Below the pieces are notes generated by a model. The model was not told the DNA's origin. It saw nothing but the letters and a program-made list of their open reading frames with translations, and did not search any database. A DNA stretch of 64,000 nucleotides from Rhizodiscina lignyota. Taxonomy: Eukaryota. Shown in pieces: positions 230-19,292 of this stretch; the first letter of the stretch is position 1; every line of letters starts with the position of its first letter. The position numbers and the translations under genes are program-made. The stretch is from positions 1,550,001-1,614,000 of the forward strand of contig ML978127.1 of assembly GCA_010015805.1 (NCBI GenBank), read 5' to 3'.

Positions 230-2087
<1,858 letters not shown>

Positions 2088-2793
2088 CTAGTAACAGGCT
2101 TGTTCACTACGGCCGAAGGCAGGGAGAACAAGAAACTGAAGCTGTGTACCTCAAAATGTTTTCATGAGGATTATTGGTATGGCGCATGATTGACCATGTG
2201 GTGTACAAATAAGTTTGCTCTGATACTCGTCTTAGCGAGATGCCTGGTGCATCCTTCGGTGAGCTGCGGTGAAGAACTGATCTGCTAGCGGATGGACTCG
2301 GGTCAGACACTGCAACTGGAAATCTACTACAGACACACCTTTGGCCTGATCTGGATACAGTCGCATGTGTCGCAAATGAGGGAGGCGCTAAACTGTCCTC
2401 ATCGCTGACTGGTGGAGGCAGGTGCGCAGGGATACTTCTTTATATCCTAAGCTGTTTCTAATACACTCGCATAAGCCCCCTGCCTGCATAGGCTTACACT
2501 GGCGCGCAACGGGAGAGGTATCGTACTCACTCACTTCCCTCCTTTCGGTCGACTCGCATGTGTTCACACGAAAAGCCCGAATTGCGACACGCGCGATTTT
2601 CAAGTGTAGTCTGTCCGCATGCTATCCAGAAGAGTCCATCCGATCTGCTAGCCACTTCTACGTTTCACTTGCGCCTGCCGCCTATATAATCCATCCTTCA
2701 GCGCCCCTTCCTTACTATCTATACTTAACTCCTATTCTCATCTGTCTTACCTGCGGATTGCTGAAGCTGAATGCTCTGCCGCATCAAGCTATC

Positions 2794-2904
2794 ACGCCCA
2801 TCAGGCCATCAGCCTAGTAATACCGGATAGATCGATGCGTTACGCCCGTTATGCCATCAGCCCAGTAATCTCGGATGGATTTTGTTGATGGCTTATCGAT
2901 GCGT
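2794..2904. repeat. Imperfect direct duplication (~40 bp unit) in the divergent BVMO/PKS intergenic region
   Basis: acgccc.....gccatcagcc(t/c)agtaat..cggat(a/g)gat starts at 2794 and 2842; each copy is followed by atcgatgcgt (2831 and 2895). Confidence 0.7.
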
Positions 2905-3248
2905 CGTCAACGAGGCCGACGTTGCTGAGGCCTGAAAGTACCGACGCTGCTCTAACATCCATCGCATCTGAGCTCAGTCAGTCGCGCCTTGCTACGTGTC
3001 TGCTGCATTCCGGACTTCCGCGAGCCGTCATCTATTGGCCCTCGAGCATCCAGACGTGTTCTGTCTCTCGCTGGGCTGAAGTACCCGTTGAAAGGTTCGC
3101 GCACGAACCATCATCGTAGAAAATCACAGCTCGTCGAAGAGGGTCCGTGCGCTCATCCTTAAGAAACAACTCAAACAAGAAAATACATAAGGGCGCGAAC
3201 TCTCGGTACAATGGCTCAGATATCTCAACTTAGGCAAAGGACGCCGAA

Positions 3249-6200
3249 ATGTCCCGCGATCGATTCAAAAATGAGCCTATTGCCCTCGTGGGCATGGCAT
3301 GCCGATTCTCGGGATCTGCTACGAGCCCGGAGTCTCTCTGGGACATGCTTAGCAAGGGCTCTACTGGATGGACCAAGACTGCGAGCCATCGCTTCAATCT
3401 CAATGCCTTTCTGCATCCAAAAGCGGACAACAAGGGCACTGTAAGTTGGCAGCCCTGTCGTTACTATGCCAATGGACGTCTAACTTGCGACAGTTTAACG
3501 CAAAAGGATTCCACCTCCTCAAACAAGACCCGGCTGTGTTCGACAATGACTTCTTCGGCATCAGTGGCTTGGAGGCCAAGGCAATGGACCCTCAGCAACG
3601 GATGCTGCTAGAAGTTGCCTATGAGGCTTTCGAAAATGCAGGCCACTCTATGGAACAACTCAAGGGCTCGCAGACAGGAGTCTGGTGCTCGGTTTCCAAC
3701 GCAGACTACGAATCGATCCTTGCCCGAGACCCCGACATCTCTCCAAAGTAAATGGTTCACGGTCGTCCTCAAGTGATATAGCTAACAGGATTCAGCTACC
3801 GCATAACAGGGATAGGTAATGCAATTATGTCCAATCGCATATCCTACTTTTTCGATCTCCGAGGTCCGAGCATGACTATCGACACATTTTGCTCTAGTAC
3901 ACTAGTAGGACTTGACGCGGCTGTGAAGTCAATTCGAGCTGGTGTGGTCGACCGAGCTCTCGTCGGTGGATCAAATCTGTGTCTTGATTCGGAGCGAACC
4001 GCAGTCCTCTCTTCCATGGGGTGAGTAATTGACCTGCCACGGGATACAAAAACAATTGCTGATGCGACCCTTTCCAATAGTTTCATGTCACCTGATGGTC
4101 GCTGTTACGCCTTCGATCCACGCGCAAGCGGATACGGTCGCGGCGAAGGGGTTGCAGCAGTCATTCTTAAACCACTCAGTATCGCTTTAGCGGATGGCGA
4201 CTCGATTAGAGCTGTGATCAGGGGTACTGGTGTAAGTTCAGATGGTAGGACCAATGGCATTACTTTGCCCTCTTCTTGGGGCCAGAAGCAAGCTGTGCAA
4301 ATGGCCTATGAGGATGCCGGGCTAAGTCCACAAGACACATATTTTGTGGAAGCACATGGTACACATAAAGAGCGACCCCGTCTGTGGAAAAGTGTCGTGA
4401 TTGACTCTGCTTAGGGACCGGAACGAAAGCTGGTGATCGAACAGAGGCCACTGTGTGGATGGACACGTTTCTGCGAGGCCGACCGCAGGGTATACCGCTA
4501 GTCGTCGGCTCCGTCAAGGGAAACTTAGGCCACACTGAGCCAACCGCTGGTCTGGCGGGTCTTCTGAAAGCAGTTCTAATTTTGGAAAAGGGTGTGATTC
4601 CATCTACACCCACTCACAAATCCTTGAGTCCCGATGTTGCAGAGGTGCTTGGGAGTTCTCTCGTGCAGGTGAGTCCAAGGATCCCAATTCACGCACACAT
4701 GCCTGACAATACGCGGTTCAGATTCCAACCAAAAATTGCCCGTGGCCAGACGGTATCGTCAGACGTATTTCTCTCAATACGACCGGATACGGCGGCACAG
4801 ATGCACATGTTGTTATTGAACATTTGGATGAGACTCTCTCTAAGACGACAAATGGAATAAGGGACAGGATGATCAGCAATTGTCCTAGAATCTTCACAAT
4901 CTCTCATCGCCGGGCAGAAGCGCTTAAAGAAACAGCGCAAGGATTACACCGTTTCCTATCCCAGAAATGGGCTCCAAAACGCGCAAATTTGTTGAGTGAT
5001 TTAGCATTTACACTTTCTAGAAGGTCTCATTTGGACTACCGAATTTCTTTCGTGGCCTCGACACTGCCGGAAGTACAGGAAAGGCTCGACTCTATTGCCA
5101 AAGGCGTCAACCGCATAGACACCGCAGGATCGCAACCTGCCATATGTTTTGCATTCACTGGTATGCGGGATATATCTATTCAATCTACATGCACTGATGA
5201 GACATGCAGGTCAGGGCGCCCAGTGGCCGCGGATGGGATTGGACCTAATATCCCACTACCCCGTCTTTGCAGAGTCGATGCGTCGATCAGAGGCCGAATT
5301 TCTCGCTCTTGGTGCAGACTGGCGTCTTTTCGAGGAATTGAACAAGACGAAAGCCGAATCGTCCATCAAACAGGCCTGGCTCTCCCAACCGTGCTGCACC
5401 GCCATCCAGATTGCCCTTGTCGATCTTCTCGCGACCTGGGGCATACGACCTCAGGCCGTTTGTGGGCATTCGAGTGGAGAGATTGCTGCTGCATACGCTG
5501 CCGGTGTTTTGACTGCAAACGAAGCTCTGAAGGTTGCTTACTTTCGAGGCTTCCATGTCGAAGCTCTGATGAAATCGAGGCCAGACCTGAAGGGAGCTAT
5601 GCTTGCAGTCGGAATTTCTGCCGAGGACGCGCTGGAGTTTATCGAGAGCGGAGACAACGTCGTTGTGGCTTGTTACAACAGTCCCCAGAGTGCTACTCTA
5701 TCGGGCGATGCGGAGGATGTCCTTCGCGTGAAGGCCAAGTTGGATGATAGAGGCATCTTTGCTCGTAAACTGGAGGTTGACGGTGCATACCACTCCTTTC
5801 ACATGAAACCTGTGGAAACCAGCTACCATGCGGCACTGCAGGATATCCGGCCCAAACCTAGCAAAGATGGCGTGCACCTATACTCGTCTGTGACCGAGGA
5901 GAGGTTGGATGGCACAGAAATGGGAGCTTCGTACTGGACCACAAATCTGATCTCACCTGTGCGATTCTCACAAGCTCTGACAAAAGTATTGAAAATGCGG
6001 GACTCTTGGATCGATTCTGGTGTATCTGGGACAACCTTGGTAACAGAGATTGGCCCACACGCCGCCCTGAAAGGTCCTATCACACAGATTGTCAAAGCCG
6101 CTGCCGTTGGAGGTCCAACAATCTATCAGAATTCGCTGAAAAGAGACGAGGATGGCCCGACAAGCCTATTGGAGCTGGCAGGCCAGGCTCACGAGCGTGG

Positions 6201-9200
6201 TGCTGCAGTGTGCTTCTCGAAAATTAACGAACCAGACTTGGGCGCCCAAAAACCTCAGCTTCTCGTTGGGCTCCCGAAATATCCGTGGAATCGCGAGAAG
6301 TCACACTGGGCAGAGTCGCGTCGGAGTGCTGCATACCGGTACAGACCTTTGCCAAAACATGAGATTTTGGGCAGCCCGACCATGGACAGCATCGATACCG
6401 AGCCTTCCTGGAGAGTATATCTCCGCACGTCTTCAATTCCCTGGGTGACAGGGCACGTTCTCCAACAACAGGTCGTCCTCCCGGGTGCGACTTATTTGTC
6501 AATGATTGTCGAGGCGCTCAAAGTGCAATACATGAATCAAAAGCGTGGATGGAAAGATCTCGTAGTCCACTTCCGCGATGTACAGTTCGTTAGAGTGCTT
6601 CTTGTCCCGGATACGGAAGTAGGGATTGAAACGATCACATCGTTGAGACTACTGTCTGAGTCGTCTGCGGATTCTCCTGCTCCATGGTACGAATTCCGTG
6701 TGTTTACTATGACAGCAGAAGGCGGGACTTCCACCGAACACTGCCGTGGTACGGTTTCAGTCGGTTCGGCTCAGATTGCGGACGTGCTTCCAAGTCCCTA
6801 CGATCCACAAGTCCCCAGCGAATTATCGTCGGCAAGCCTCTACAGCGAGCTCGAGTCTCTTGGGGCCAAATATACTGGATATGCTGCCCAACTGAAGGCA
6901 ATTCGAGGTGGCCATGGCTTCGCCAAATGCGAATTCCATATCCCGAACACCAGTGCAGGCATGCCAGAGGAAACCGAGCAGCCATGTGTGGTGCATCCCT
7001 TGACGCTCGAGGCGGCTTTGCAAACGCCGTTTGCCGCACTGAAGTTGGACAACAAGCTAGAGACGATCTTCCTACTTCAAGGCATCGACGAGCTTTACAT
7101 CTCCACGGATATCCCATCTCAACCAGATACCGTATTGAGCACCGAGACAGAAGTGGAAGCCTTCGGTATTCTTAAGACAAAAGCACAAGTGACTGTCACA
7201 CATCCGGGCCAATCGCTTAACTCGGTTTACATCAGAGCGACCGGCGTCCGCTATGCTGGACTTGAGCAGGAAGACGACATTCCTGAAGGCCTGGAGAAAG
7301 AATCTCTCTGCCACTACGTCGATTGGGTCATCGACCCTTTCTATTCTAGCCCGGATTCGTTGGTCCAGTGGATTCAACAAACTGTCGGAAAAAGAGCGGC
7401 TACGACCACCAAGCCCGAGTCCATCATTGAGCAGTATTGCCAGGCCGCCATTAAGCACATGTCAATGGACTGCTCAGTGTATGATGGAAAGAACAAGAGT
7501 ATCCACGATCGTCTGGTGCGATGGAAAGAATCTTTAGAGACGAACACGACTCCCGACATGAGTCTCGCACTAGAAAAAAAGCTCCTGGCCCAAGGATCCC
7601 TTGGGAAATCGATTCTTGGGGTAATTACTGCTCTCAGTCAGCACGCCAACGGACAGGACAGCGACCTGCCGTCGTTGACTCAGGCCAACTTGATCTACCG
7701 GAGCCTGCACGAAGATGCTGCGGTCAAGCGGTCTCTCCATCATGTCGCTTCGTACCTTAAGATCTTGAGGCTAAAGAGACCAAACCTTCGCATCTTAGCC
7801 CTTGGAAACGAACTTGAGACTTTGAAATCTCTCGTCAATGATGTGGTATTTTCATCTAAGCCTGGCCAGGACCTAAGAGACGACGACTGCAGTTGCACCT
7901 ACGCCGAAATCGCCGCAGGCGACCAAGACAGCTCCTCCGAGTGTCTCAAACTGGACCTCATGCGACCACTTGAAGACCAAGACATAGAGCAAGGGCAGTT
8001 TGATGTCGTGCTTATACCGTCGTTCTTGAGCCATCTAGTTACAGACTTGTTGGTTGCATTACCTCGACTGCGGTCATTGCTTAGAGACGGAGGAGCAATG
8101 GTTTCAGTGGATGTCACCAAGCCCACAATCAAATGGGAAGTGATTTCGACCAGCCTCTTGATCCAAGACCGCGAACTCGTCAACTCTAAATTCATGGACG
8201 CAAAACAGTGGGAGGCGATAATGCATAAGTGTGGTTTCGGAGATCTGTCTGCAATACCGGATGTCGAGTCTGCAAAAGATCATGAAACGAGCGTGTTGAT
8301 CGCCCGCACATTTCGCAAGACGTCAATCATGAGCAAATCCGTCACTGTCATTGTACCTCAGGGATGTGAAGAACTCGTGGAACATCTCGCGTCAAAGATC
8401 AAAGCCAACGACATCAATGTAACCACATCCACTGTTGAAAAGGCTGTCCCAGACGATGGTACCTTCATTATTCTTTTGGATTTGTCGAAGCCCTTTTTGA
8501 AAGGCCAGACACCGACTGAGTGGCAAAAGCTACAAGAGATCATGACCCAAGCTAGCCGCGTATTGTGGGTCACCAACAAGGGCGCATTTGAAGCGTCCGA
8601 CCCTGCAATGAGTCTGTCCACTGGTTTCGCTCGAAGCCTGAGAGTCGAGTTTCCAGAATTACAGCTGGTCACGCTGGATATTGAGCTCGCCTCAACATCG
8701 GAAGCTGCGCAGAGTATCTATAACATTTATTCCACGCACCTCGAAAGCGATGTCTCCGCTTGGAAGGCGACAGAGAGGGAGTGGGAATTCGCACAGAGAG
8801 GCAATGCCGTTCTCGTCCAGCGTGCCTTCAGTCACTCTACCGGGAGTGGCTACATCGAAGATTGTACCTCATCCTACCACCCAAGACTGACTCCACTTGG
8901 TACAAAAAGTCGAGCCCTCGGCCTCAGAATACGCACAGCAGGTATGCTCGATTCCCTTCACTGGGCGGACATGGCGGCCCATAGCAAGATTGTGGGTCCT
9001 GAGGAGATCCGTGTGACGATGCAGAACTTTTCTATCAACCCCCTGGATCTGAGCACTATCAAAGGCGATTCCACAAGAGGGTCAACTCTTCTCACCGAAG
9101 GTGTGGGCGTGGTTATGGAAATCGGCTCACAAGTGAAGGATTTCTCCGTTGGGGATACTGTTTATGCTTTTGAGCCAACAGGACTAGCGATCAACAGCAA

Positions 9201-11117
9201 TATCCGGACCCAGAAAGCTGTCAAGATCCCGCAGGGAGTCAACATTACAGAAGCCGTTACTGTACCGCTTGTATATGGAACGGCCCTGTTTTGCCTTCGA
9301 CACATTGCACACATGCAATCTGATGAAACGATATTGATTCATTCCGCGGCCACCTCTGTTGGCCAAGCAGCAATTGCACTGGCAAGATATGTTGGAGCAG
9401 GCGACATCTTGGTCACAGCAAACACAGTTGATGAGCGGGAGTTCCTGGAGAAGCAATGGGGGATCCCTACTGCGAAAATCTTCCTTGCAGCAGATTTTGA
9501 GAATGCACCCGAAATCGTCAAGAGGACCCATGTTCGTGGTGTCGACATTCTGCTCAATTGTACGCTTACCCCGGCCCTTAGCGACATCTGTTCCATCTTG
9601 GCCGTTTTTGGCCGCTTGGTTGATGTTGGCCTGCAAGAGACGCGTCGCACTGCAAGACTGGAGACCAAGGCGCTGGCGAAGAATGCCTCCTACACAGTAG
9701 CGGACATGGCCCTTCTGGCAGAAGCAAAACCAGCACTTTTGAGAGAAGTCTTCACCCGCGCTCTCGATCTTGTCGCAGACTCCAAAGTCCAGCTTTTGCC
9801 GAAGATTATGACCTACCCCCTCAACGCAGCCAAAGAAGCTTTTGAGCTTTCACGGCCAGGGCAGAAAGTTTTGGAAGTTGTCGCAGGCATGTCCTTGATG
9901 ACTCAACCATCACGACCTGCGCAGGCCAAACTCAGACACGACGCCTCGTATCTCGTTGTTGGTGGCACTGGTGGCATTGGAAGAGTTATTACTCGTTATC
10001 TGGTTCAGTTGGGCGCCACACGTATCATCACGCTTTCACCATCTGGGAACGACAAGGCTGAGACTAGACAGCTTGCTGGAGAGTTGTCTCGGCAAGGTGT
10101 TGAGCTCGAAAATGTTAAAGGAACAGCAGCTGACGTCGACACACTCAAAAGAATTGCGCAAGACAACGGAGCACGGCCTGTACGTGGTGTAATTCACGCA
10201 GGAGCTGTCTTCGAGGTAGGTCTTATCTCGTCTCTGCTGCGATATGTAGGACGATGCTAACGATTGCACAGGATGGGCCCTTCGAAAGGATCACATACGA
10301 ACAGTGGAAGCGTGGGACCGGACCGAAGGTAGAAGGCACCATTAATCTTCACGAGGTTTTCGGCACATCTGTCGAATTTTTCACCTTGCTGAGCAGTGTT
10401 GTCGGTGTGCATGGAACATACGGACAGATCGCGTATATCACTGGAAACGCGTTTCAAGACGCGTTTGCGCGATCCTGCGCTACCCGTGGACTCCCCGCAC
10501 GATCACTCGACCTGAGCATGGTGGCTGGTGAGGGCCAGGGAGCTCAAGCAGACTCGGTTGCTTTCTTGCAACGCCACGGCTTACGTAAGGTCGATTTGGA
10601 AACTGTTACAGCCGCCATCAGCTTCACAATCAATCATCCAATCGCCCCTACCCCTGCCGAAGGGCAGATACTCGTTGGTTTGAGGCAGGAACATCCTGAT
10701 TCGGGGTCGAAGGTCGCGGCTTTGCAGCGCCCGGACGCGCGCTTTTCTCATATCTGGTTCAAACCTATTGGCAGCAGTACAAGCGCTGTGAAGCCAGGCG
10801 AATTTGACGTTCAAGCCTCGCTTCGAGAAGCGACAACAGCCGAGGGAGCGACGCAGGCAGCATTCAATGGCCTGAGCGGGCTTGTATCAGAGCTATTGGA
10901 TGTGGAACAGTCCTCGTTGCTTCCGGAGCGGAATGTGATCAGTTATGGGTTGGATTCGCTCACTGCCATGGAGCTGAGAAAGTACGTGCAGACGACGTTG
11001 GCAAGTGCAGTGCAGATGTTGGAGATTATGAATCCCATGTCACTCATGGAGTTTGCGAAATTGGTCGCAAGCCGGTCTGCGCTCGTCAATAGTGATTTAT
11101 TCCCAAAGGAAAAGTAG
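3249..11117 (+). CDS. Highly reducing iterative type I PKS, KS-AT-DH-(pseudo)MT-ER(likely inactive)-KR-ACP; 8 exons
   Basis: Introns ~3441-3493, 3748-3795, 4021-4080, 4359-4414, 4669-4721, 5161-5209, 10216-10271. KS: EPIALVGMACRF, DTFCSS, HGTGT, GHTE. AT: GHSSG, AYHS. DH: HVLQQQVVLPG. ER-like IHSAATSVGQAAI. KR: VGGTGGIG and GQIAYITGN. ACP: GLDSL. Stop follows the ACP. Confidence 0.95.
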
Positions 11118-11280
11118 ATATCGAGGCGGAGATATATACAACCCTTTGTAAAATTCAGAACATTCTTGTCTGTCTGTACACATGGTTTCAAATCTCCACG
11201 CAAAGCCGGGTTCCATTCTTGCCTGCGGTCAGAGAGAGAATGGCAATGGACGATACGGAGATGACTCGTCATCATCGCCT

Positions 11281-11318
11281 CTGCCTTTTGCTGTGGCTCC
11301 TGCCTTTTGCTGTGGCTC
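11281..11318. repeat. Perfect 19-bp tandem duplication upstream of the acyltransferase
   Basis: ctgccttttgctgtggctc x2. Confidence 0.85.
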
Positions 11319-11446
11319 TCACCACACATTGTGCGCTACTCGCGGTGAATCTTTCTCTCCGAGCAACCTTACATAGATATATAGGTCGATTCGCACATCT
11401 CTCTCGTCAGTCCCAGCAGTCCCCTTCACTCACAAACGAATCAACC

Positions 11447-12859
11447 ATGAAATCCAAGAAAACATTGGTGCGTCCGAACGACCCGTCTTTAGGGGATCCC
11501 GACGACTTGTCCCCCTTGGATCAATACATGATACGTATCATAATTCCAATCATGTGTACGTTCAAAATCGAGCGCGACGACCTCCGCCCTACTATTATCC
11601 AGAATTTGAAAACTGGATTGGCGCGTACTATCGACGAAATTCCATTTATTGCATCTGTGATAGTTCCAGATGACGAGGAACGCGGTACCATGAAGTTGCA
11701 TTTCGACGAGGAAGCGACAGGAGTCTGGTTTCATGAGCAAGAGTGTTTGGATTATTCGTACGAAGAACTGGAGAAGCGGAGATTTTCGCCCAGGTGCTTT
11801 CCTGTGACGACTTTTGTGGCCGAGCCGAGAGGGCACTCTGAGAAATGTCCTGTTCTAACCGTTCAGGCAACATTCATCAAAGGCGGCTTGGTTGTCACCT
11901 ACAACGGACATCACGGTGTCATGGACGCCCAGTCACTCGGTACCTTCGCGGCCCTCTGGTCAAGGAACGTACTTGCCGTGTCCGAAGGCTACATGATACC
12001 TCCGAGCGAGCAATTCAAGTCCGAGGACCTCGACCGCACCGATTTCGCCATGGCATCTAGCTCGCGTAGCTTTTCTGATTTCCATACATATCAGCCAGGC
12101 AAAGAAACTCACAACACCGTGGAACGGGACAAGATTCTACGCCTCAGCTCCGCTGGAGAGCATTTGAAGCTTCACGAGCTGGTTCCTATCTCCCACTGGT
12201 TCATGACCAAGGAGAAACTCGACCAGCTGAATCAAAGCGTCCGAGATGCCTTCCCTAGCGAACGAGGCGTCACCGAGGCCGCACTACTGAGCGCACTTAT
12301 CTGGAAGTCAGTCGCTCAGGCCCGTAACCTGAGTGAGAGAGAAATTGATGGGTGTTCCATGTTTACCTCTACGAACATCCGTCGCATGCTTGATCCTCAG
12401 CTGGCACTCACGTACCCTGGCAATGCAATTGCCCTTGCGCGAGCCGACGCATCAACCAAGGAGCTTTATTCTGACGATGAGCTGAGAACGCTCTATAGAC
12501 TGGCCAAGAAGGTGTCTGAGTCGATTGATGAATGGACTGCGGATGAACTTTATGACTTGATGGGTGTAGTTCAAGAGGCTGACGACGTGGTCAATACAAT
12601 GTATCCAAATCTAGACCACGGTTTTTATTGTAGTCAACCGGCTCGGTTTGGCAACCTTGTAGGCGGGTCGCAATGGGGCAATGAGATGGGGGCCATCAGG
12701 GCTTTTCGATTTGCATTTCCGCCACCAGTGGATGGGTTCGGATGCCCGTTGCCGGCTGTGGGAGGTGGCATGGATATCATGATATGGATCAACGAGGAAG
12801 TGCAGACAAAGCTTAGGACTTTGCGGTCGTGGATCAAATGGGTAGAGGAGATCGAGTAA
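11447..12859 (+). CDS. BAHD/Tri101-like CoA-dependent acyltransferase (~470 aa, intronless)
   Basis: Likely ATG 11447 (caaccATG). LSPLDQYM N-terminus, PVLTVQATFIKGGL, catalytic HGVMD (HxxxD), YPGNA; the DFGWG motif is reduced to SQWG. Confidence 0.85.
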   Translation: MKSKKTLVRPNDPSLGDPDDLSPLDQYMIRIIIPIMCTFKIERDDLRPTIIQNLKTGLARTIDEIPFIASVIVPDDEERGTMKLHFDEEATGVWFHEQECLDYSYEELEKRRFSPRCFPVTTFVAEPRGHSEKCPVLTVQATFIKGGLVVTYNGHHGVMDAQSLGTFAALWSRNVLAVSEGYMIPPSEQFKSEDLDRTDFAMASSSRSFSDFHTYQPGKETHNTVERDKILRLSSAGEHLKLHELVPISHWFMTKEKLDQLNQSVRDAFPSERGVTEAALLSALIWKSVAQARNLSEREIDGCSMFTSTNIRRMLDPQLALTYPGNAIALARADASTKELYSDDELRTLYRLAKKVSESIDEWTADELYDLMGVVQEADDVVNTMYPNLDHGFYCSQPARFGNLVGGSQWGNEMGAIRAFRFAFPPPVDGFGCPLPAVGGGMDIMIWINEEVQTKLRTLRSWIKWVEEIE

Positions 12860-13441
12860 AGTCTGATGTCGAGCGTTAGCTAGAATCTGGTATCGACACG
12901 TCTTATACACTTGCGAACATGTCCTAAACATGCCTTAAACAAGCAGATATAGCACAAGGGCTTGGACTTCTTCGTTTCAAGCTGAAGAGTCACTTGTGGT
13001 TATAAAACACGGATGCAAGACAATGTCGAACAAATCTGACATATCATAGTCCCGTGGCTGCTCGAGAACAAATCGAATAGCACTTGTGGCTACGTAGTCT
13101 AAGAAGGGGAATTTTGGAAGCCGAGTGAAGCAATTTTGTTCAGCCCTGTCAACGAGCGAGTTAGATTTGAAGAATTGCTTGCTCGCTCGCTGCAAATCGA
13201 GTCATAGTGGTTGGCCCGCTCGCTCAAACGAGTCAAATTAAGTAGAGTCTATATATATTAGTCAGAAGCCATATCTACACCTCATTCCGACCTCACTCCT
13301 AACCCGGCTAACGAGTGAGCGCAAATCGAGTTACCAGGCGTAGCTCGTTTGTCAGACGAGTGAGGATCTCTTCACATGATAAGTGAGTCAAATCTGTAAA
13401 GTAGCCTCGCTCGACTCGGTGGTTAACAGGTCTGGTTTTGT

Positions 13442-15241
13442 TTACGGAGCGAACTTGGATCTTGCCCGTAACGAGGCACCGTAAAACCATAGGGCGAAAA
13501 TACCAGCGATGCAACCAACAGTCAACCCTCCCAGCAGAGTGACGCCTCTGGCTACTCCGAGATTGTCGTATAAGGGTTGGGAGCAATGGACGATGGCAGC
13601 AGCAAGTACTGATCGAGCGACGGTATTTCCAGCGAATAAAGATGCTGCGTACTTCGGATATCCGAGAGGAAGGTAAAGGAAAATGGGCTGCATAATCAGG
13701 AAGATGCCGCCACTTAATATCGCTAATCCAATGGCGGATACGATCCAGTGAATATCAGGAGTTGCTGTCCACGCGAAGAGGAAAAGTCCTATGGGAAGCA
13801 TGAACGATGCGAAGAGCGCGGGAATTAGGCGGCGTTCCGGGGGCCCAAGGTTTCCAACACGCGCGGCGGGCTCCCATGTAAAGCGAATCCAGGTTAGGTA
13901 CATTACCCAACACAAAAAAATTCCAACGGAGATGGGCAGATAGAGGAGACCTTGCGCTCCGAGCGAAAATCCATATCCGTCTCCGTAAACTAGAGGGAAA
14001 CACTCGAAAAATGAGTAGTAGATCCCGTAGATTAGAGCAACGTAAATTGCTGTGAATCCAATGGAGGGGTCGAGGATCATAGTCTGTATTGGCCGACAGA
14101 GAGCTTCGAAGACGACCTCTCGAGGTTGAAGCTTGGATTGGTCGATTTCGCCCTGGCTCCTGAAGCAAGACTGGCCAGTGCGTGCACGCAATCGTTGGGC
14201 GCGTCGAAGCAGAATAGTTGAAGATGATGTTTCGGGAACGAGAAAGAAGAAAGCTATAAGGAGTGGACCACTAAGCCATAGCAACTCCCAGGAAGACCAT
14301 CGCCAACTAGTGGCCGGCACGCTATAGCCAGAAAGCAAAGGACCGACAGCCGGACCGCTTGTGGCGACGAGAGCCCAGGTCGCTAATGCGTATGGAAGCT
14401 TAGCGAAGGCAAACATGTCGGCTAAAGACGCTGGACCAGTAGCGAGGCAAGGGCTTCCAAAGAATCCCAGGAGAAATCGTAGGACAACCAAGCCCGGAAA
14501 ATCGTTTACTAGCGCCGTAGGAACGAGGAGAATGACGAATATCGTAAAGGAGATAATGTACAGCGGGCCCCGACCAACGGAAGGAATCTCAGTGAGAGGC
14601 GACCAGAGCAAAGGACCGATCCCGTAGGCCAGGACATACATAGAGAGATTGAGAGAAACAACCTGTTGAGAAACACCGAACTGGCGAATCACGCCGCCGT
14701 AGCTTCCAGTAAAGATTGAGGAGCCGAGATAGAACGCAAAGGTGTAGGTGATCACGATCACTGCTGGCACCGATTTTTGACCAGACGTCCAATTCTGTGG
14801 ATTTGCAGGATCGTTAGGACCGTACCAGTTGACGATTATAGTGCCGTCGTCTAACACTTTGGGCTCGAATGAGTCGTCATGATGTGCTTTCTCGTCGAAT
14901 GTCGCGGAGCCCTCCTCGTCTGGTAGGGTAGGATCCGAATGAGTGCCGTTGTTCTCACTAACGATCTCAATTACGCTGGTGTCGCCGCTACTTGAGTTTG
15001 GGTGACCAAGTGTACCGCCTAGCATAAGGCCGGTAGGAACAGAAGGGTCCTTGAGAACGTTATTCTGCGAGCTGGCAGGCAAAGATCTATCTTTTGAGCG
15101 TAACTCAGCTGCTTCGAGGAGCTTGATGTAGGAGTCTTGCAGCCGAAAATCTCGTTGCTCTTCTGGGTATCGCAGAACTTGATTTCGCGTAACCAAGCGG
15201 ACGAATTGTCCAAAGCTCGTGTCGCGGATGAATTTGGACAT
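13442..15241 (-). CDS. MFS multidrug transporter, DHA1 family
   Basis: 599-aa intronless ORF; WYGPNDPANPQNW, GPLLWSPLTEIPSVGR, LRFLLGFFGSP, WRW, PET, PERRL; about 12 hydrophobic segments. Confidence 0.92.
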   Translation of the reverse strand: MSKFIRDTSFGQFVRLVTRNQVLRYPEEQRDFRLQDSYIKLLEAAELRSKDRSLPASSQNNVLKDPSVPTGLMLGGTLGHPNSSSGDTSVIEIVSENNGTHSDPTLPDEEGSATFDEKAHHDDSFEPKVLDDGTIIVNWYGPNDPANPQNWTSGQKSVPAVIVITYTFAFYLGSSIFTGSYGGVIRQFGVSQQVVSLNLSMYVLAYGIGPLLWSPLTEIPSVGRGPLYIISFTIFVILLVPTALVNDFPGLVVLRFLLGFFGSPCLATGPASLADMFAFAKLPYALATWALVATSGPAVGPLLSGYSVPATSWRWSSWELLWLSGPLLIAFFFLVPETSSSTILLRRAQRLRARTGQSCFRSQGEIDQSKLQPREVVFEALCRPIQTMILDPSIGFTAIYVALIYGIYYSFFECFPLVYGDGYGFSLGAQGLLYLPISVGIFLCWVMYLTWIRFTWEPAARVGNLGPPERRLIPALFASFMLPIGLFLFAWTATPDIHWIVSAIGLAILSGGIFLIMQPIFLYLPLGYPKYAASLFAGNTVARSVLAAAIVHCSQPLYDNLGVARGVTLLGGLTVGCIAGIFALWFYGASLRARSKFAP

Positions 15242-15364
15242 GATTCGGCGACAGTGATAAGTTCCGATCGTAATGAATGAGTGACGAGCAGTTAGGAGCG
15301 GGACAAACAGGAGTGCGAAGGCGTAGAGTAGATTAAGAAGAGGGAAGCTTCATGTAGCTCAGTC

Positions 15365-15396
15365 CTGGTCCTGACAGGGGAACCTGTCAGGACCAG
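15365..15396. repeat. Perfect 14-bp inverted repeat with 4-nt loop upstream of the MFS gene
   Basis: ctggtcctgacagg-ggaa-cctgtcaggaccag. Confidence 0.85.
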
Positions 15397-15489
15397 CCGT
15401 TGTTGACCTTGTTCTGGTGGTGTGCTTATGCCCACTTTTCCTCTTTATATCCTCAAGTCGGCCTGTGCATTTTACACTTTCATGGCGTT

Positions 15490-15730
15490 TGAAAAACTAA
15501 CTATATAAGGAGTTAGCAATATCTTAGATTTTCTATGCTAGCTTATAATGGCTAGCGTATTATTCTTAAAGCTAGTTTAAATTTTTTAGGGCTACGTACG
15601 TTCTCTTCCTAGCGTCAGGGGTAAATTTATTTTAGCTTAAAAAGGAGTAGGGCTATTCTAAACTAGTTAATTAGGGCTAGTAACCCTAACCCTAGTAAGC
15701 TCTAGCTTTTCTAAGTATAGTATAAAATGC
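15490..15730. mobile_element. AT/TpA-rich RIP-like repeat relic
   Basis: Abrupt AT-rich, TA/TAG-rich patch (tagcttataatggctag, tttagcttaaaa) with taaccctaaccct at ~15681, set within otherwise roughly 50% GC DNA. Confidence 0.5.
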
Positions 15731-15961
15731 ACGGGCTGACTTGAGGATATGAAGAGGAAAAGTGGGGGGGTGCCTCCGTGATGGCAACGCGTTGTATTGT
15801 ATGTTGTTAAGTATGAATTTGTGTCCTGCGCACCTGCCTTCAGCAGGGGGAAATGGATCATCTGACCATTTCTTAATCATCTGCCTCATTTATCGCTTCA
15901 AAACTAACATCCACTCTTTACGTACACAGCGCAAGAGCATTTGACTGGCCTTTACCACCAA

Positions 15962-18538
15962 ATGAAGGATACATCTACACTTGGAAACCAAATGGAGAAA
16001 GATGGACCATCCACTCGCGCAAGCTTTTCGATATACGGCCCGAACACGTATATTGAGCGGGTCGCGCCAGTCTCCTTTGCACAGGCGCCAGTGTATTTCC
16101 TATCCCAATTTCTCGAAGACTGCACGTCACTCAATGTCACACTCAGTAACCGGATTCAAGGCCCGCTGCGAGTGTCTCAACTCAACCAGGCTTTTCAAAA
16201 GGTCGCACTTCGTCATGAGGCGTTGCGCACATGCTTCTTTCTGGACGAAGAAACATCCGAGCCCATGCAAGGTATTCTCAATGCTCCCACATTTCAGTTG
16301 GAGTGTCGACAGGTCCGCAACGAGGGCGAGGTATTCGAGGAAATAGAGCTTTTCAAGCGTCACAGATACGATCTCGAAACCGGCGAGACTGTAAAGGCGA
16401 CTCTGCTGTCTTTGGAGCCAGAGTCTCATTTTCTCATCTTTGGACACCACCACCTCGTGTTAGATGGCGTCAGCGGTCAAAACATACTGCACGACCTGGA
16501 AAGGGCATATCGATCACAGAGCCTGCAGCCAGTGTACCAATATGCTGACTTTTCCAACATGCAGAGAGCGCTCGTGGAAAGCGGGCTCCCCGAGGAGCTC
16601 TCATTCTGGAGGAGCGAGTTCGCTGAGCTTCCACCCGTGCTGCCTTTGCTGCCCAATGCCAAAGTCCAATCAAGGCAGGAATCGATGGAGCCCCGATCGA
16701 CCGTGCTAAAATTCACTCTCAATGCAGATTTAGCGAGTCAAGTCAAAATAGTCAGCCGCCGTCTCAAGGTCACCTCATTCCAGTTGCACCTCTCGCTTCT
16801 CCAGCTTCTTCTATTCAAGCTTGTTGGCGAGAGAGATCTGTGCATTGGCGTGATGGATGCTAACCGAACGAATGACCTTATTGAAAGCGTGGGCTTTTTC
16901 GTTAATTTGCTGCCGGTGCGCTTCAGAATCCAGGAGAGCGACACCTTTGAGCACCTTGTCACTCAAACCCGACAAAAGGCACTCCAGGCCCTCAAACATT
17001 CTCAGATGCCGTTTGATGTGCTTCTCGGGAACTTGAGCGTGCCTCGATCGTCAGCGCATAGCCCTCTATTCCAAGTTGCAATCAATTACAGGATGGGCAC
17101 ATTTCGAAGGGCATCGTTCGGCGATTGCGAGATGGAATTTTCGAGCATGGATGATGCGAGCACCACCTTTGATCTGATAGTAGACATTGAAGATTGCGAC
17201 GATGGTGTCTGCTGCATGGCGTTCGTGGGACAAGAATATCTGTACCCGGTCGACGCTCTACGTACGCTTGCGAATCAGTACGCCGACCTGCTCAGTTTTG
17301 TGTCACGCCAGCCAACTCTGGAACTCAGCGAGTATACTGTATCCCGCCCTGGTGGAAACGGAATCGCAGAGCTTGTCGACTCTCCAGCCTCCACACCTTC
17401 AAAGCGTCTGCCTTTGCGAGCCCAATCGGCCCTTGTAATGACCAAGCGTGGAACTTGGGAGTTATTGAACACGATGCCTGTGCTGGAGTTGATACCGGAC
17501 TCTGTTCTCATCAAGGTCGAAACGACAGCTCTAAATCCTCTCGACTGGAAATTGCCCGAATTCTCTCTATCTCCAGGATCCGTTGGTGGCTCAGATTTCT
17601 GTGGGACAGTCACGGCCATTGGCAGCGATAGCTTGCCGAAATCACTCCTCGTTGGAGACCGTGTCTGTGGATGGGTTTTTGGCTCGAATCCTCAGCGACC
17701 TGGAAACGGGGCTTTTGCAGAGTACGTTACTGCTTTTAGCGATCTAGTTATGAAGGTCCCCTCGTGGATGTCGTCAGAAGATGCTTGTACCCTTGCACTA
17801 GCTTCTGCGACTGCCGGACAGGCGCTATATTGGTCGTTGCAGTTACCTTTGCCGACAGCGCCGGCTGAGAGCCCTTTCTATGTGTTGGTGAATGGAGGAA
17901 GCACTGCCACAGGGACAATGGCAATTCAACTATTAAAGCTGTAAGCGTGACCAAACTTACATCAGAGAGCTTGCTAATTGCCATGCAGTTCTGGCTTGAT
18001 TCCCATCACGACTTGTTCTCCCCACAACTTTGATGTGGTGCAGTCGTACGGCGCCAAAGCGGCATTCGATTATCGCTCTCCGACCTGCGTGGACGACATC
18101 CAGGCCTACACGAACAATTCCATCACTCATGTTTTAGATTGCATCTCTACACCACCTTCCATGGCCCTCTGTTACAAGGTCATTAAACCCAGCTCCTCCG
18201 GTAGCACAACAAAATCCAAGTACACCGCTCTTGAACCATATTCTACCCGAATCAGCGCTTCTCGTTCGGACGTCACGGCGGATTGGGTGCTGCTATTGAC
18301 TCAATTTGGAGAGTTAGTAGGATTGAGCGGCGTCTATGCAAGGGAAGCGAGGCCACAAGATCGTGTATGGATGAGACATTGGTATGAGGTGGTTGAACGC
18401 CTTGTGTTGGAGAAGAAGCTTCGACCGCATCCTCGGGAAATTTTTGGTAGCGGCGGATTATTGCCAATTGTTGACGGATTGGAGCGTCTGAAGTCTGGAA
18501 AAGTTTCGGGGACCAAGTTAGTCTGTAGAGTCGCTTAA
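15962..18538 (+). CDS. Condensation domain / trans-enoyl reductase (LovC-like) fusion protein, ~842 aa; intron 17941-17988
   Basis: One uninterrupted frame from C-domain motifs (PVSFAQ, RHEALRTCF, HHHLVLDG, VGFFVNLLPVR, PFD, PLFQV) into trans-ER motifs (ALNPLDWK, GSDFCGTV, GDRVCG, GAFAEY, VNGGSTATG). After the GTAAGC..GCAG intron: TTCSPHNF, GKVSGTKLV. Confidence 0.88.
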
Positions 18539-18592
18539 TAACGTATTTAGTTTCTACTCAATAGTTACGAGAGACCACCTTAGATTGTGTTA

Positions 18593-19292
18593 ACGTACTT
18601 AATAAGCGAGCGGTCCGGACAAGCGAATGGCGCGCTTCATATATAATAAAACATTGCCAACGCAATCATAATTAAGTCTGAGTGCCCACGCGCGTAGCTT
18701 TGTAATTTAGGAGAGGGCAATGTCACGTGACTTTGATCACGTGACATGCTTAGTCATAAGGCACGCGACGTGAACGGGATATTGAATTCATTAAGTATAT
18801 GCTTATTCGGTGCGTCTGCGCCTGCTTACTCGGTGCTTATGCGCCTGTTCATTTAGTGCCTCTATGCCTACTTATTCGGTGCTTACTGGCTGGCTAAGTG
18901 CCTACTACTTCGGTGCTTATGGGCTGGTGCTTCGGTGCTTCGGTGCTCGCTAGCTGGCTTCGGGGCTCGCCAGCTGGCTTCGGTGCTCGCTGGCTTGCTC
19001 GGGTGCTAGCTGGCTGGCTTGAGTGCCTGCTGTTTCGGTGTCTATCTCGCTCGGGCGCTTGCTAGCTGGCTTAGGTGCTTATCCCCCTTAGTGCTAGGGC
19101 ATTCCCGGCCTCGGTACAGAAGTACCCCCCAGACTCGGTACGGAGGTACCCACATCATGGGACCCCCTGCACCCAGTCCCACCCAGAGCTGGGTGCAATA
19201 ACCCCCCAGAATTTAGGTACTAAAACCGGGAATGCCAGGTCTAGCGCTAAGGGGGATAAGCTCGCTACTTCGGTGCTCGCTACTTATCACGT
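18593..19292. mobile_element. Probable non-autonomous Tc1/mariner (pogo/Fot1-like) relic with internal short repeats
   Basis: Both ends read TA|ACGT inward, followed by AGCGAG-type repeats. The interior has many cttcggtgct/gctagctggc repeats, TpA enrichment and paired tcacgtga sites at 18721-18746. No transposase ORF; the ends are only loosely similar. Confidence 0.45.

Follow-up and report, generated by a model that had tools for sequence, protein, structure and literature searches.

Trans-acting enoyl reductases (ERs) and odd condensation (C) domains at the ends of fungal polyketide synthases (PKSs) are well-known helpers of polyketide assembly. In Fum14, which combines a peptidyl carrier protein (PCP) with a C domain, a C domain without an adenylation (A) domain of its own terminates the polyketide chain by transferring the acyl group to a free nucleophile. 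Among the reductases, LovC binds the malonyl-acyltransferase (MAT) domain of the synthase LovB, and this contact is needed for the product, as stated in the available part of PMC7870829. The C domain of TwmB makes amides with beta-alanine or 5-aminopentanoate, according to the excerpted text of PMC11153888. A LovB-like C domain, or CON domain, functions when supplied in trans; the signature of CON domains is HRxxxDG and their role is not canonical condensation (PMC13492342, in the portion available). For the C domain of ClaE, the same portion reports that it is essential and works in trans, that its Arg is dispensable and its Asp required, and that its chemistry is unknown (PMC13492342); there, too, the action of a C domain without an adenylation-thiolation (A-T) partner and the role of LovB-type CON domains are presented as unsettled. 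Here we describe a gene, C-ER, that joins a C domain and a LovC-type ER on one polypeptide chain. It is found in a stretch of 64,000 nucleotides from Rhizodiscina lignyota (contig ML978127.1, positions 1,550,001 to 1,614,000, assembly GCA_010015805.1), hereafter the window, where it lies 4.8 kb from a highly reducing PKS (HR-PKS). The C-ER arrangement is real, conserved and rare, and the whole is best explained by a single trans-acting helper protein for the adjacent HR-PKS, a reading to which we assign a probability of about 0.5.

Positions are coordinates of the 64-kb window, on the plus strand unless marked, and the 33 open reading frame (ORF) translations across the window were scanned for domains. 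Four sequences were aligned, namely that of the window, P0001 from a relative at 95% identity, and P0002 and its cluster-mate P0388, the latter on an 878,609-nt contig, which represent a relative at 64%. The C-ER gene has the following features.

15962-18538, plus strand: C-ER gene, two exons, 842 codons, one terminal stop
15962-17940, plus strand: exon 1, with the first ATG at 15962
16055-17341, plus strand: condensation domain, protein residues about 32-460 (Pfam PF00668)
16448-16468, plus strand: HHxxxDG motif, H163 H164 L V L D168 G169; the 64% relative has Arg in place of H164
17342-17410, plus strand: variable linker from C to ER, about 25 residues, delimited by part-wise identity
17411-18535, plus strand: LovC-like enoyl reductase domain of the medium-chain dehydrogenase/reductase (MDR) fold, interrupted by the intron, from Pfam and LovC matches
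17549-17551, plus strand: Lys530, aligned with LovC Lys54; chain 3gqv has Ser there; invariant in the 4 sequences
17894-17914, plus strand: GGSTATG, nucleotide-binding glycine stretch, aligned with GGSTATA of LovC; the same in all 4 sequences
17941-17988, plus strand: intron of 48 nt in the ER domain, GTAAGC ... GCTAAT ... CAG, at the point that corresponds to the boundary of LovC residues 187 and 188
17989-18538, plus strand: exon 2, coding for the C-terminal ER half; stop TAA at 18536-18538

Judged from its sequence, C-ER is very probably a real fused gene. On the first frame, which extends from stop to stop over 15908-17944 (678 aa), Pfam finds the Condensation family with an E value of 1.1e-68 (232.5 bits, with the cut-off at 30.6; positions 2-446 of the 456-position profile), followed by ADH_N at E 4.1e-11; on the second frame, of 186 aa (17978-18538), ADH_zinc_N scores 25.4 bits, under its cut-off of 31.8. 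Joining of the two exons (15962-17940 and 17989-18538) gives 2529 nt, that is 842 codons plus a single terminal stop. A second ATG of the gene, at 15992, codes for a Met that is invariant in 4/4 aligned sequences. The first-pass annotation, made from the letters of the stretch alone, had read an uninterrupted frame that led from a C domain with an intact HHHLVLDG into a LovC-type trans-ER, with no A or PCP domain on the protein and an HR-PKS cluster as its setting. The C domain, the linker and the first half of the ER do lie in one frame, but the frame is not free of introns, since the 48-nt intron at 17941-17988 falls within the ER. The other points of that description were borne out: GHHHLVLDG is found at 16442-16468, Pfam detects neither an AMP-binding nor a PP-binding domain on the protein, the whole length of LovC is matched and the HR-PKS occupies 3249-11117.

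A direct, if weak, hint of a spliced transcript comes from a contig without the intron, belonging to run X4, from a related organism (type of run unrecorded, depth 3). In this contig 17934 is joined to 17989 with six letters between, which are synonymous variants of 17935-17940; exactly 17941-17988 is missing, and both flanking differences are synonymous. An ORF-level fragment of a free trans-ER-type gene, P0394 (46% identical), starts MPCSS-AGYIPITTCSP, and the intron-derived start of the second frame of the window (17978-17992) reads LPCSS-GLIPITTCSP; judging from this start, free trans-ER genes seem to share both the position of the intron and its 3' end. An upstream exon with a carrier domain was considered and ruled out, the C-domain match beginning at residue 26 and the 95% relative being without 384 nt of the spacer at 15431-15816.

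The distribution of the fusion was followed by protein searches in 5.8 billion protein clusters, with the exon-1 product and the junction residues 330-660 as queries and the best 120 matches listed for each. Both domains, with the query covered, are present in 2 of the 120 matches listed for exon 1, P0001 (95%) and P0002 (63-65%). The junction search returned the same two fused proteins among its 120, the remaining 118 being 116 ER-only proteins, one ER joined to a P450 and one C-only protein; no further fused form is found among the matches listed in either search. Many of the nearest free ERs, among the matches listed, bear names of lichen fungi; given also that the 95% relative is from a run with a lichen-metagenome label, the cluster probably belongs to a fungus of the lichen type. 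A representative search gave 87,955 matches, and 149 of the best 150 are multi-module synthetases (4,052-7,864 aa) that match the C domain only, P0002 being the only fused protein; weaker fused forms are not countable from the best 150 of 87,955.

The ER of both relatives is, on the evidence of their exon-2 counterparts, complete: P0391 is 90% identical and lies on an 18,037-nt contig, the same size as the contig of P0001, and P0392 is 71% identical and lies on a contig of 878,609 nt, the size of that of P0388. A third lineage of the C-ER family may be represented by P0393, a JGI protein of 124 aa, because its identity to the C-terminal half of the ER (73%) far exceeds that of the free trans-ERs (34-47%). 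The ESM Atlas returned only generic bacterial condensation clusters, at 0.89, and no lead; scans of JGI metagenomes with the 4-sequence alignment and with P0393 gave pattern matches and no confirmed relative. A structure model of the exon-1 product, predicted from the four aligned sequences, had a mean predicted local distance difference test (pLDDT) value of 35.2 and was unusable.

Comparison with the relatives revealed different rates of change along the protein. The C domain of the window is 96.1% identical to that of P0001 and 59.2% identical to that of P0388, and for the N-terminal half of the ER the values are 94.8% and 81.8%, respectively. Against P0388 the C domain has only one gapped position in 435, with no stop or frameshift. 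Residues 461-487 (17342-17422), which include the linker and extend into the start of the LovC match, share 74% identity with P0001 and only 30% with P0388, the latter with 7 gapped positions; despite this change of linker length, the C-to-ER junction is in frame in the window, in the 95% relative and in the 64% relative. Conserved domains on both sides of a linker that changes fast but stays in frame are, at the sequence level, the pattern of a translated fusion, unlike that of two genes or of a decaying relic. The 18,037-nt contig of the 95% relative, which derives from a run labelled as lichen metagenome, is collinear with the window over 821-18575; between 15852 and 18575 the two differ at 121 bases, with no gap, and 34 amino-acid differences from P0001 are found in 650 codons. 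Rough arithmetic from the 121 base and 34 amino-acid differences gives a ratio of nonsynonymous to synonymous rates (dN/dS) of about 0.2, and by this estimate the C-ER gene of the 95% relative is under purifying selection.

The two halves of the protein point to different relatives. In canonical C domains, the second His of HHxxxDG is the catalytic His. The motif of the C-ER family reads HHLVLDG in the window and P0001, and HRLVLDG in P0002 and P0388; D168 and G169 are invariant in 4/4 aligned sequences. The best match of the C domain among solved structures is the C domain of PsoA (287 bits, E 2.4e-84, PsoA residues 2580-3022), and the score against the CON domain of LovB or MokA is 152 bits, about half of it. 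Among the matches listed, its closest non-fused relatives (36-42% identity) are hybrid pieces with the order acyl carrier protein (ACP)-C or ketoreductase (KR)-ACP-C, some of which continue into an A domain, and we propose, on the basis of similarity, that the C half is derived from that of a hybrid of a PKS and a nonribosomal peptide synthetase (NRPS). For this hybrid-type clade the HRxxxDG of the 64% relative, with its loss of the second His, is unusual, because 66 of the 69 nearest hybrid-type C domains (P0003-P0071) keep HH; one has HN and in two no motif was seen. Beyond the C-ER protein, none of the 33 ORF translations of the window contains an AMP-binding domain, and the sole PP-binding match is the ACP of the PKS itself.

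The ER half covers LovC (3b6z) in two pieces, residues 8-187 with an E value of 2.9e-25 and residues 188-360 with 1.2e-29, and the remaining MDR structures match much more weakly (E 2.8e-09 or worse). Lys54 of LovC, with which K530 is aligned, is presumably the catalytic residue. The ER half is predicted to catalyze the NADPH-dependent reduction of ACP-bound enoyl intermediates.

The genes that accompany C-ER include the HR-PKS, whose domains are a ketosynthase (KS), an acyltransferase (AT), a dehydratase (DH), a pseudo-ketoreductase (psiKR), an ER in cis, a KR and the ACP.

230-2033, minus strand: flavin monooxygenase of the Baeyer-Villiger type (BVMO), one intron; fingerprint at 1387-1355
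3249-11117, plus strand: HR-PKS (KS, AT, DH, psiKR, ER, KR, ACP), several introns, stop TAG at 11115-11117, no release domain
9343-9363, plus strand: NADPH motif of the PKS cis-ER, SAATSVG; active ERs have SATGGVG or SAAGGVG
11447-12859, plus strand: BAHD/Tri101-like acyltransferase, a separate gene directly behind the PKS stop, with HHGVMD at 11909
13442-15241, minus strand: transporter of the major facilitator superfamily (MFS), divergent from C-ER

The stop TAG of the PKS lies 36 nt past the ACP region. Its AT-DH part scores best with PsoA (280 bits) and LovB (242 bits), the next match reaching 141 bits; with these two as best matches, the PKS is, on present scores, a member of the PKS-NRPS/LovB lineage that uses trans-ERs. 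The cis-ER of the PKS contains HSAATSVGQAA, to be compared with HSATGGVGQAA in mycocerosic acid synthase and HSAAGGVGMAA in a modular PKS. From the replacement of GG by TS we infer that the cis-ER is probably blind to NADPH; this reading is not secure, because the rest of the domain resembles active ERs and not the pseudo-ER (psiER) of LovB. The combination suggests that inactivation was recent or subtle, unlike the state of a decayed psiER. Both the PKS and the C-ER gene are touched by short contigs of low depth from run X4 (6550-10969 and 15924-18189); if X4 is RNA, the two genes are expressed together in that organism.

On these grounds a working scheme can be proposed for the helper protein. 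The ER half would act like LovC, docking on the PKS, by analogy on its AT domain, and reducing chosen enoyl-ACP intermediates with NADPH. We infer that it is likely the trans-ER of the adjacent PKS, because the latter has no domain beyond its ACP and has TSVG in place of GGVG in its cis-ER. The C half would be kept at the PKS through its fusion to the ER and would act on the ACP-bound chain; in the favoured variant it would release the chain onto a free amine or alcohol, in analogy with TwmB. Chain release is favoured because the PKS lacks a release domain and no A-T module can be seen; that the C domain performs it remains a tentative proposal, with odds clearly below even, and a CON-like role is comparably likely, being nearly as likely as release. 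A more speculative extension, which we consider possible, is that C-ER is a natural single-chain trans module, in which docking of the reductase brings a C-type domain to the ACP and both reduction and termination (or CON-type shaping) are carried out by one detachable protein. If this is true, the PKS-NRPS lineage has re-partitioned its domains, with the C domain moved from the synthase to the trans-ER, and the HH and HR lineages form a natural pair for working out the function of LovB-type CON domains.

Several observations weigh against the helper scheme, above all against release by its C half. Apart from its NADPH motif the cis-ER shows good preservation: among solved structures it matches active ERs best (mycocerosic acid synthase, E 2.4e-44), and the 60 matches listed for it include neither of the decayed psiERs, that of LovB and that of PsoA; it may therefore still be working, and the role of a trans-ER would then be less obvious. 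The catalytic second His is not kept throughout the C-ER family, P0002 and P0388 having Arg. The first-pass annotation had argued from the intact HHHLVLDG for release by amide or ester formation, an argument that is weakened both by this replacement and by the separate BAHD-like acyltransferase of the cluster, which could act as the off-loading (or polyketide-acylating) enzyme. Moreover, neither a gene supplying the nucleophile nor an A-T protein is seen within the window. Part of this evidence would fit a protein that combines CON and LovC in one chain: the ER half would still be the trans-ER, and the C half would take part in programming or cyclisation of the ACP-bound chain, forming no amide or ester, with release left to the BAHD-like acyltransferase or to an enzyme encoded outside the window. 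This alternative is possible, though we would not bet on it. The HRxxxDG of the 64% relative is the mark of LovB-like CON domains, and in ClaE the Arg is dispensable but the Asp is required (PMC13492342, as far as its available portion goes), the Asp here, D168, being invariant; the PKS is LovB/PsoA-like, and the cluster has an acyltransferase of its own. Conversely, the window and the 95% relative have the canonical HH, the C domain is much closer to the amide-forming PsoA (287 bits) than to the CON domains of LovB or MokA (152 bits), and domain scans of the window ORFs detected no LovG-type thioesterase.

The variation of the active-site His between lineages would also be expected of a C half that is only a relic of the break-up of a PKS-NRPS cluster, folded but inert, or serving as a docking aid, so that only the ER works. 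The C domain is indeed less conserved than the ER at the larger distance (59% vs 82%), and it lacks a carrier or A domain as a partner. However, at 64% overall identity it has been kept without stop or frameshift and with one gapped position in 435, its Pfam profile is covered over 2-446 of 456, and its 59% identity stands against 30% for the linker, with D168 and G169 invariant; we thus regard a relic as improbable. Least credible of all, to the point of being nearly discounted, is an artefact of the gene model, that is a separate C protein and a free trans-ER starting from an internal Met such as M493, or a one-off rearrangement. Trans-ERs do normally stand alone (116 of the 120 matches listed in the junction search), but the frame is open across the junction in three diverged sequences despite the change in linker length, no stop separates the domains, and M493 falls within the stretch aligned to the N-terminal region of LovC. 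The presence of the fusion at both 95% and 64% identity shows that it is not a one-off. The preferred reading is still that of a single helper protein acting in trans on the neighbouring HR-PKS.

The remaining genes delimit a small cluster. The acyltransferase has trichothecene 3-O-acetyltransferase as its best solved match (E 9.4e-10). In the 95% relative, indels of 1 nt and 19 nt at 11150 and 11282 mark the spacer between the PKS and the acyltransferase as non-coding. A fusion of the PKS with the transferase domain, whose frames overlap over 11096-11117, was ruled out by the TAG at 11115-11117, by the indels of the relative and by the ATG at 11447 before the domain. The divergent promoter region shared by the MFS and C-ER genes (15431-15816) is the one in which the 95% relative lacks 384 nt; 34 other letters are found there instead. 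On the left side, the BVMO, whose fingerprint was found in the sequence and which we take to be of the Baeyer-Villiger type, lies at the window edge, and the cluster may run past position 1. To the right of C-ER there are genes of housekeeping type (calpain, BAR-PH, arrestin, WD40, Miro-like GTPase and others), and the border of the cluster is probably near 18575, because collinearity with the 95% relative ends at that position. Just downstream of the C-ER stop, 18800-19290 contains degenerate tandem repeats of 20-23 nt and an inverted repeat of 21 nt; contig depth there rises about five-fold (793 vs 155, in the likely source run) with many alternative joints, which indicates a multi-copy repeat.

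C-ER is a small, separable test object: co-expression allows a comparison of the PKS, of C-ER, of point mutants and of split halves, and the family offers two natural states of the active site, HH and HR. The fusion may also represent a novel means of bringing release or tailoring domains to iterative PKSs, one that engineering could put to use. The small cluster in which it is found, where the PKS and C-ER are accompanied by a BVMO, by a BAHD-like acyltransferase and by an MFS pump, is uncharacterised. According to the first-pass annotation no characterised C-ER fusion is known and, in agreement, none was found in full-text literature searches, subscription-only papers and supplements being outside their scope.

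Among known systems, the ER half is closest to LovC and the fungal trans-ERs (ApdC-like, FSL5, UcsL): LovC is aligned over 8-360 with the Lys54 position and GGSTAT kept, and the named free trans-ERs found in the junction search are 40-48% identical to the ER half. Like the LovC-type enzymes, C-ER stands beside a PKS with an altered cis-ER motif, and its intron position is seemingly shared with P0394; unlike them, it is not free-standing, since these proteins have about 360 residues (listed relatives about 360-470), whereas the ER of C-ER is preceded by about 485 residues of C domain and linker. The C half resembles the C domains of PKS-NRPS hybrids (PsoA, ACE1-like) in its full-domain match to PsoA and, in the window, in HHxxxDG; it differs from them in that it is joined neither to an upstream ACP nor to a downstream adenylation-thiolation-reductase or Dieckmann cyclase part (A-T-R/DKC), and in that the 64% relative has lost the second His. 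TwmB and Fum14, compared by description only, have their C domain fused to a PKS or to a carrier domain, whereas that of C-ER is fused to a reductase. The PKS-C enzyme TwmB, which makes the wortmanamides, has, like C-ER, a C domain without an A domain of its own; in TwmB this domain terminates the polyketide by passing the acyl chain to a free nucleophile (PMC11153888, from the text available). With the CON domains of LovB, MokA and ClaE, C-ER has in common a C-type domain in the service of an HR-PKS with a trans-ER and, in the 64% relative, HRxxxDG; CON, too, can act in trans (PMC13492342, in the part available). In contrast, CON stands at the C-terminus of the PKS, behind the ACP and unfused to an ER, whereas the C domain of C-ER is encoded by another gene, has HH and not HR in the window, and is closest to PsoA, not to LovB or MokA. 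Thus, the parts of C-ER, a LovC-type ER and a hybrid-type C domain, are known, and their joined arrangement is rare and conserved, not categorically new.

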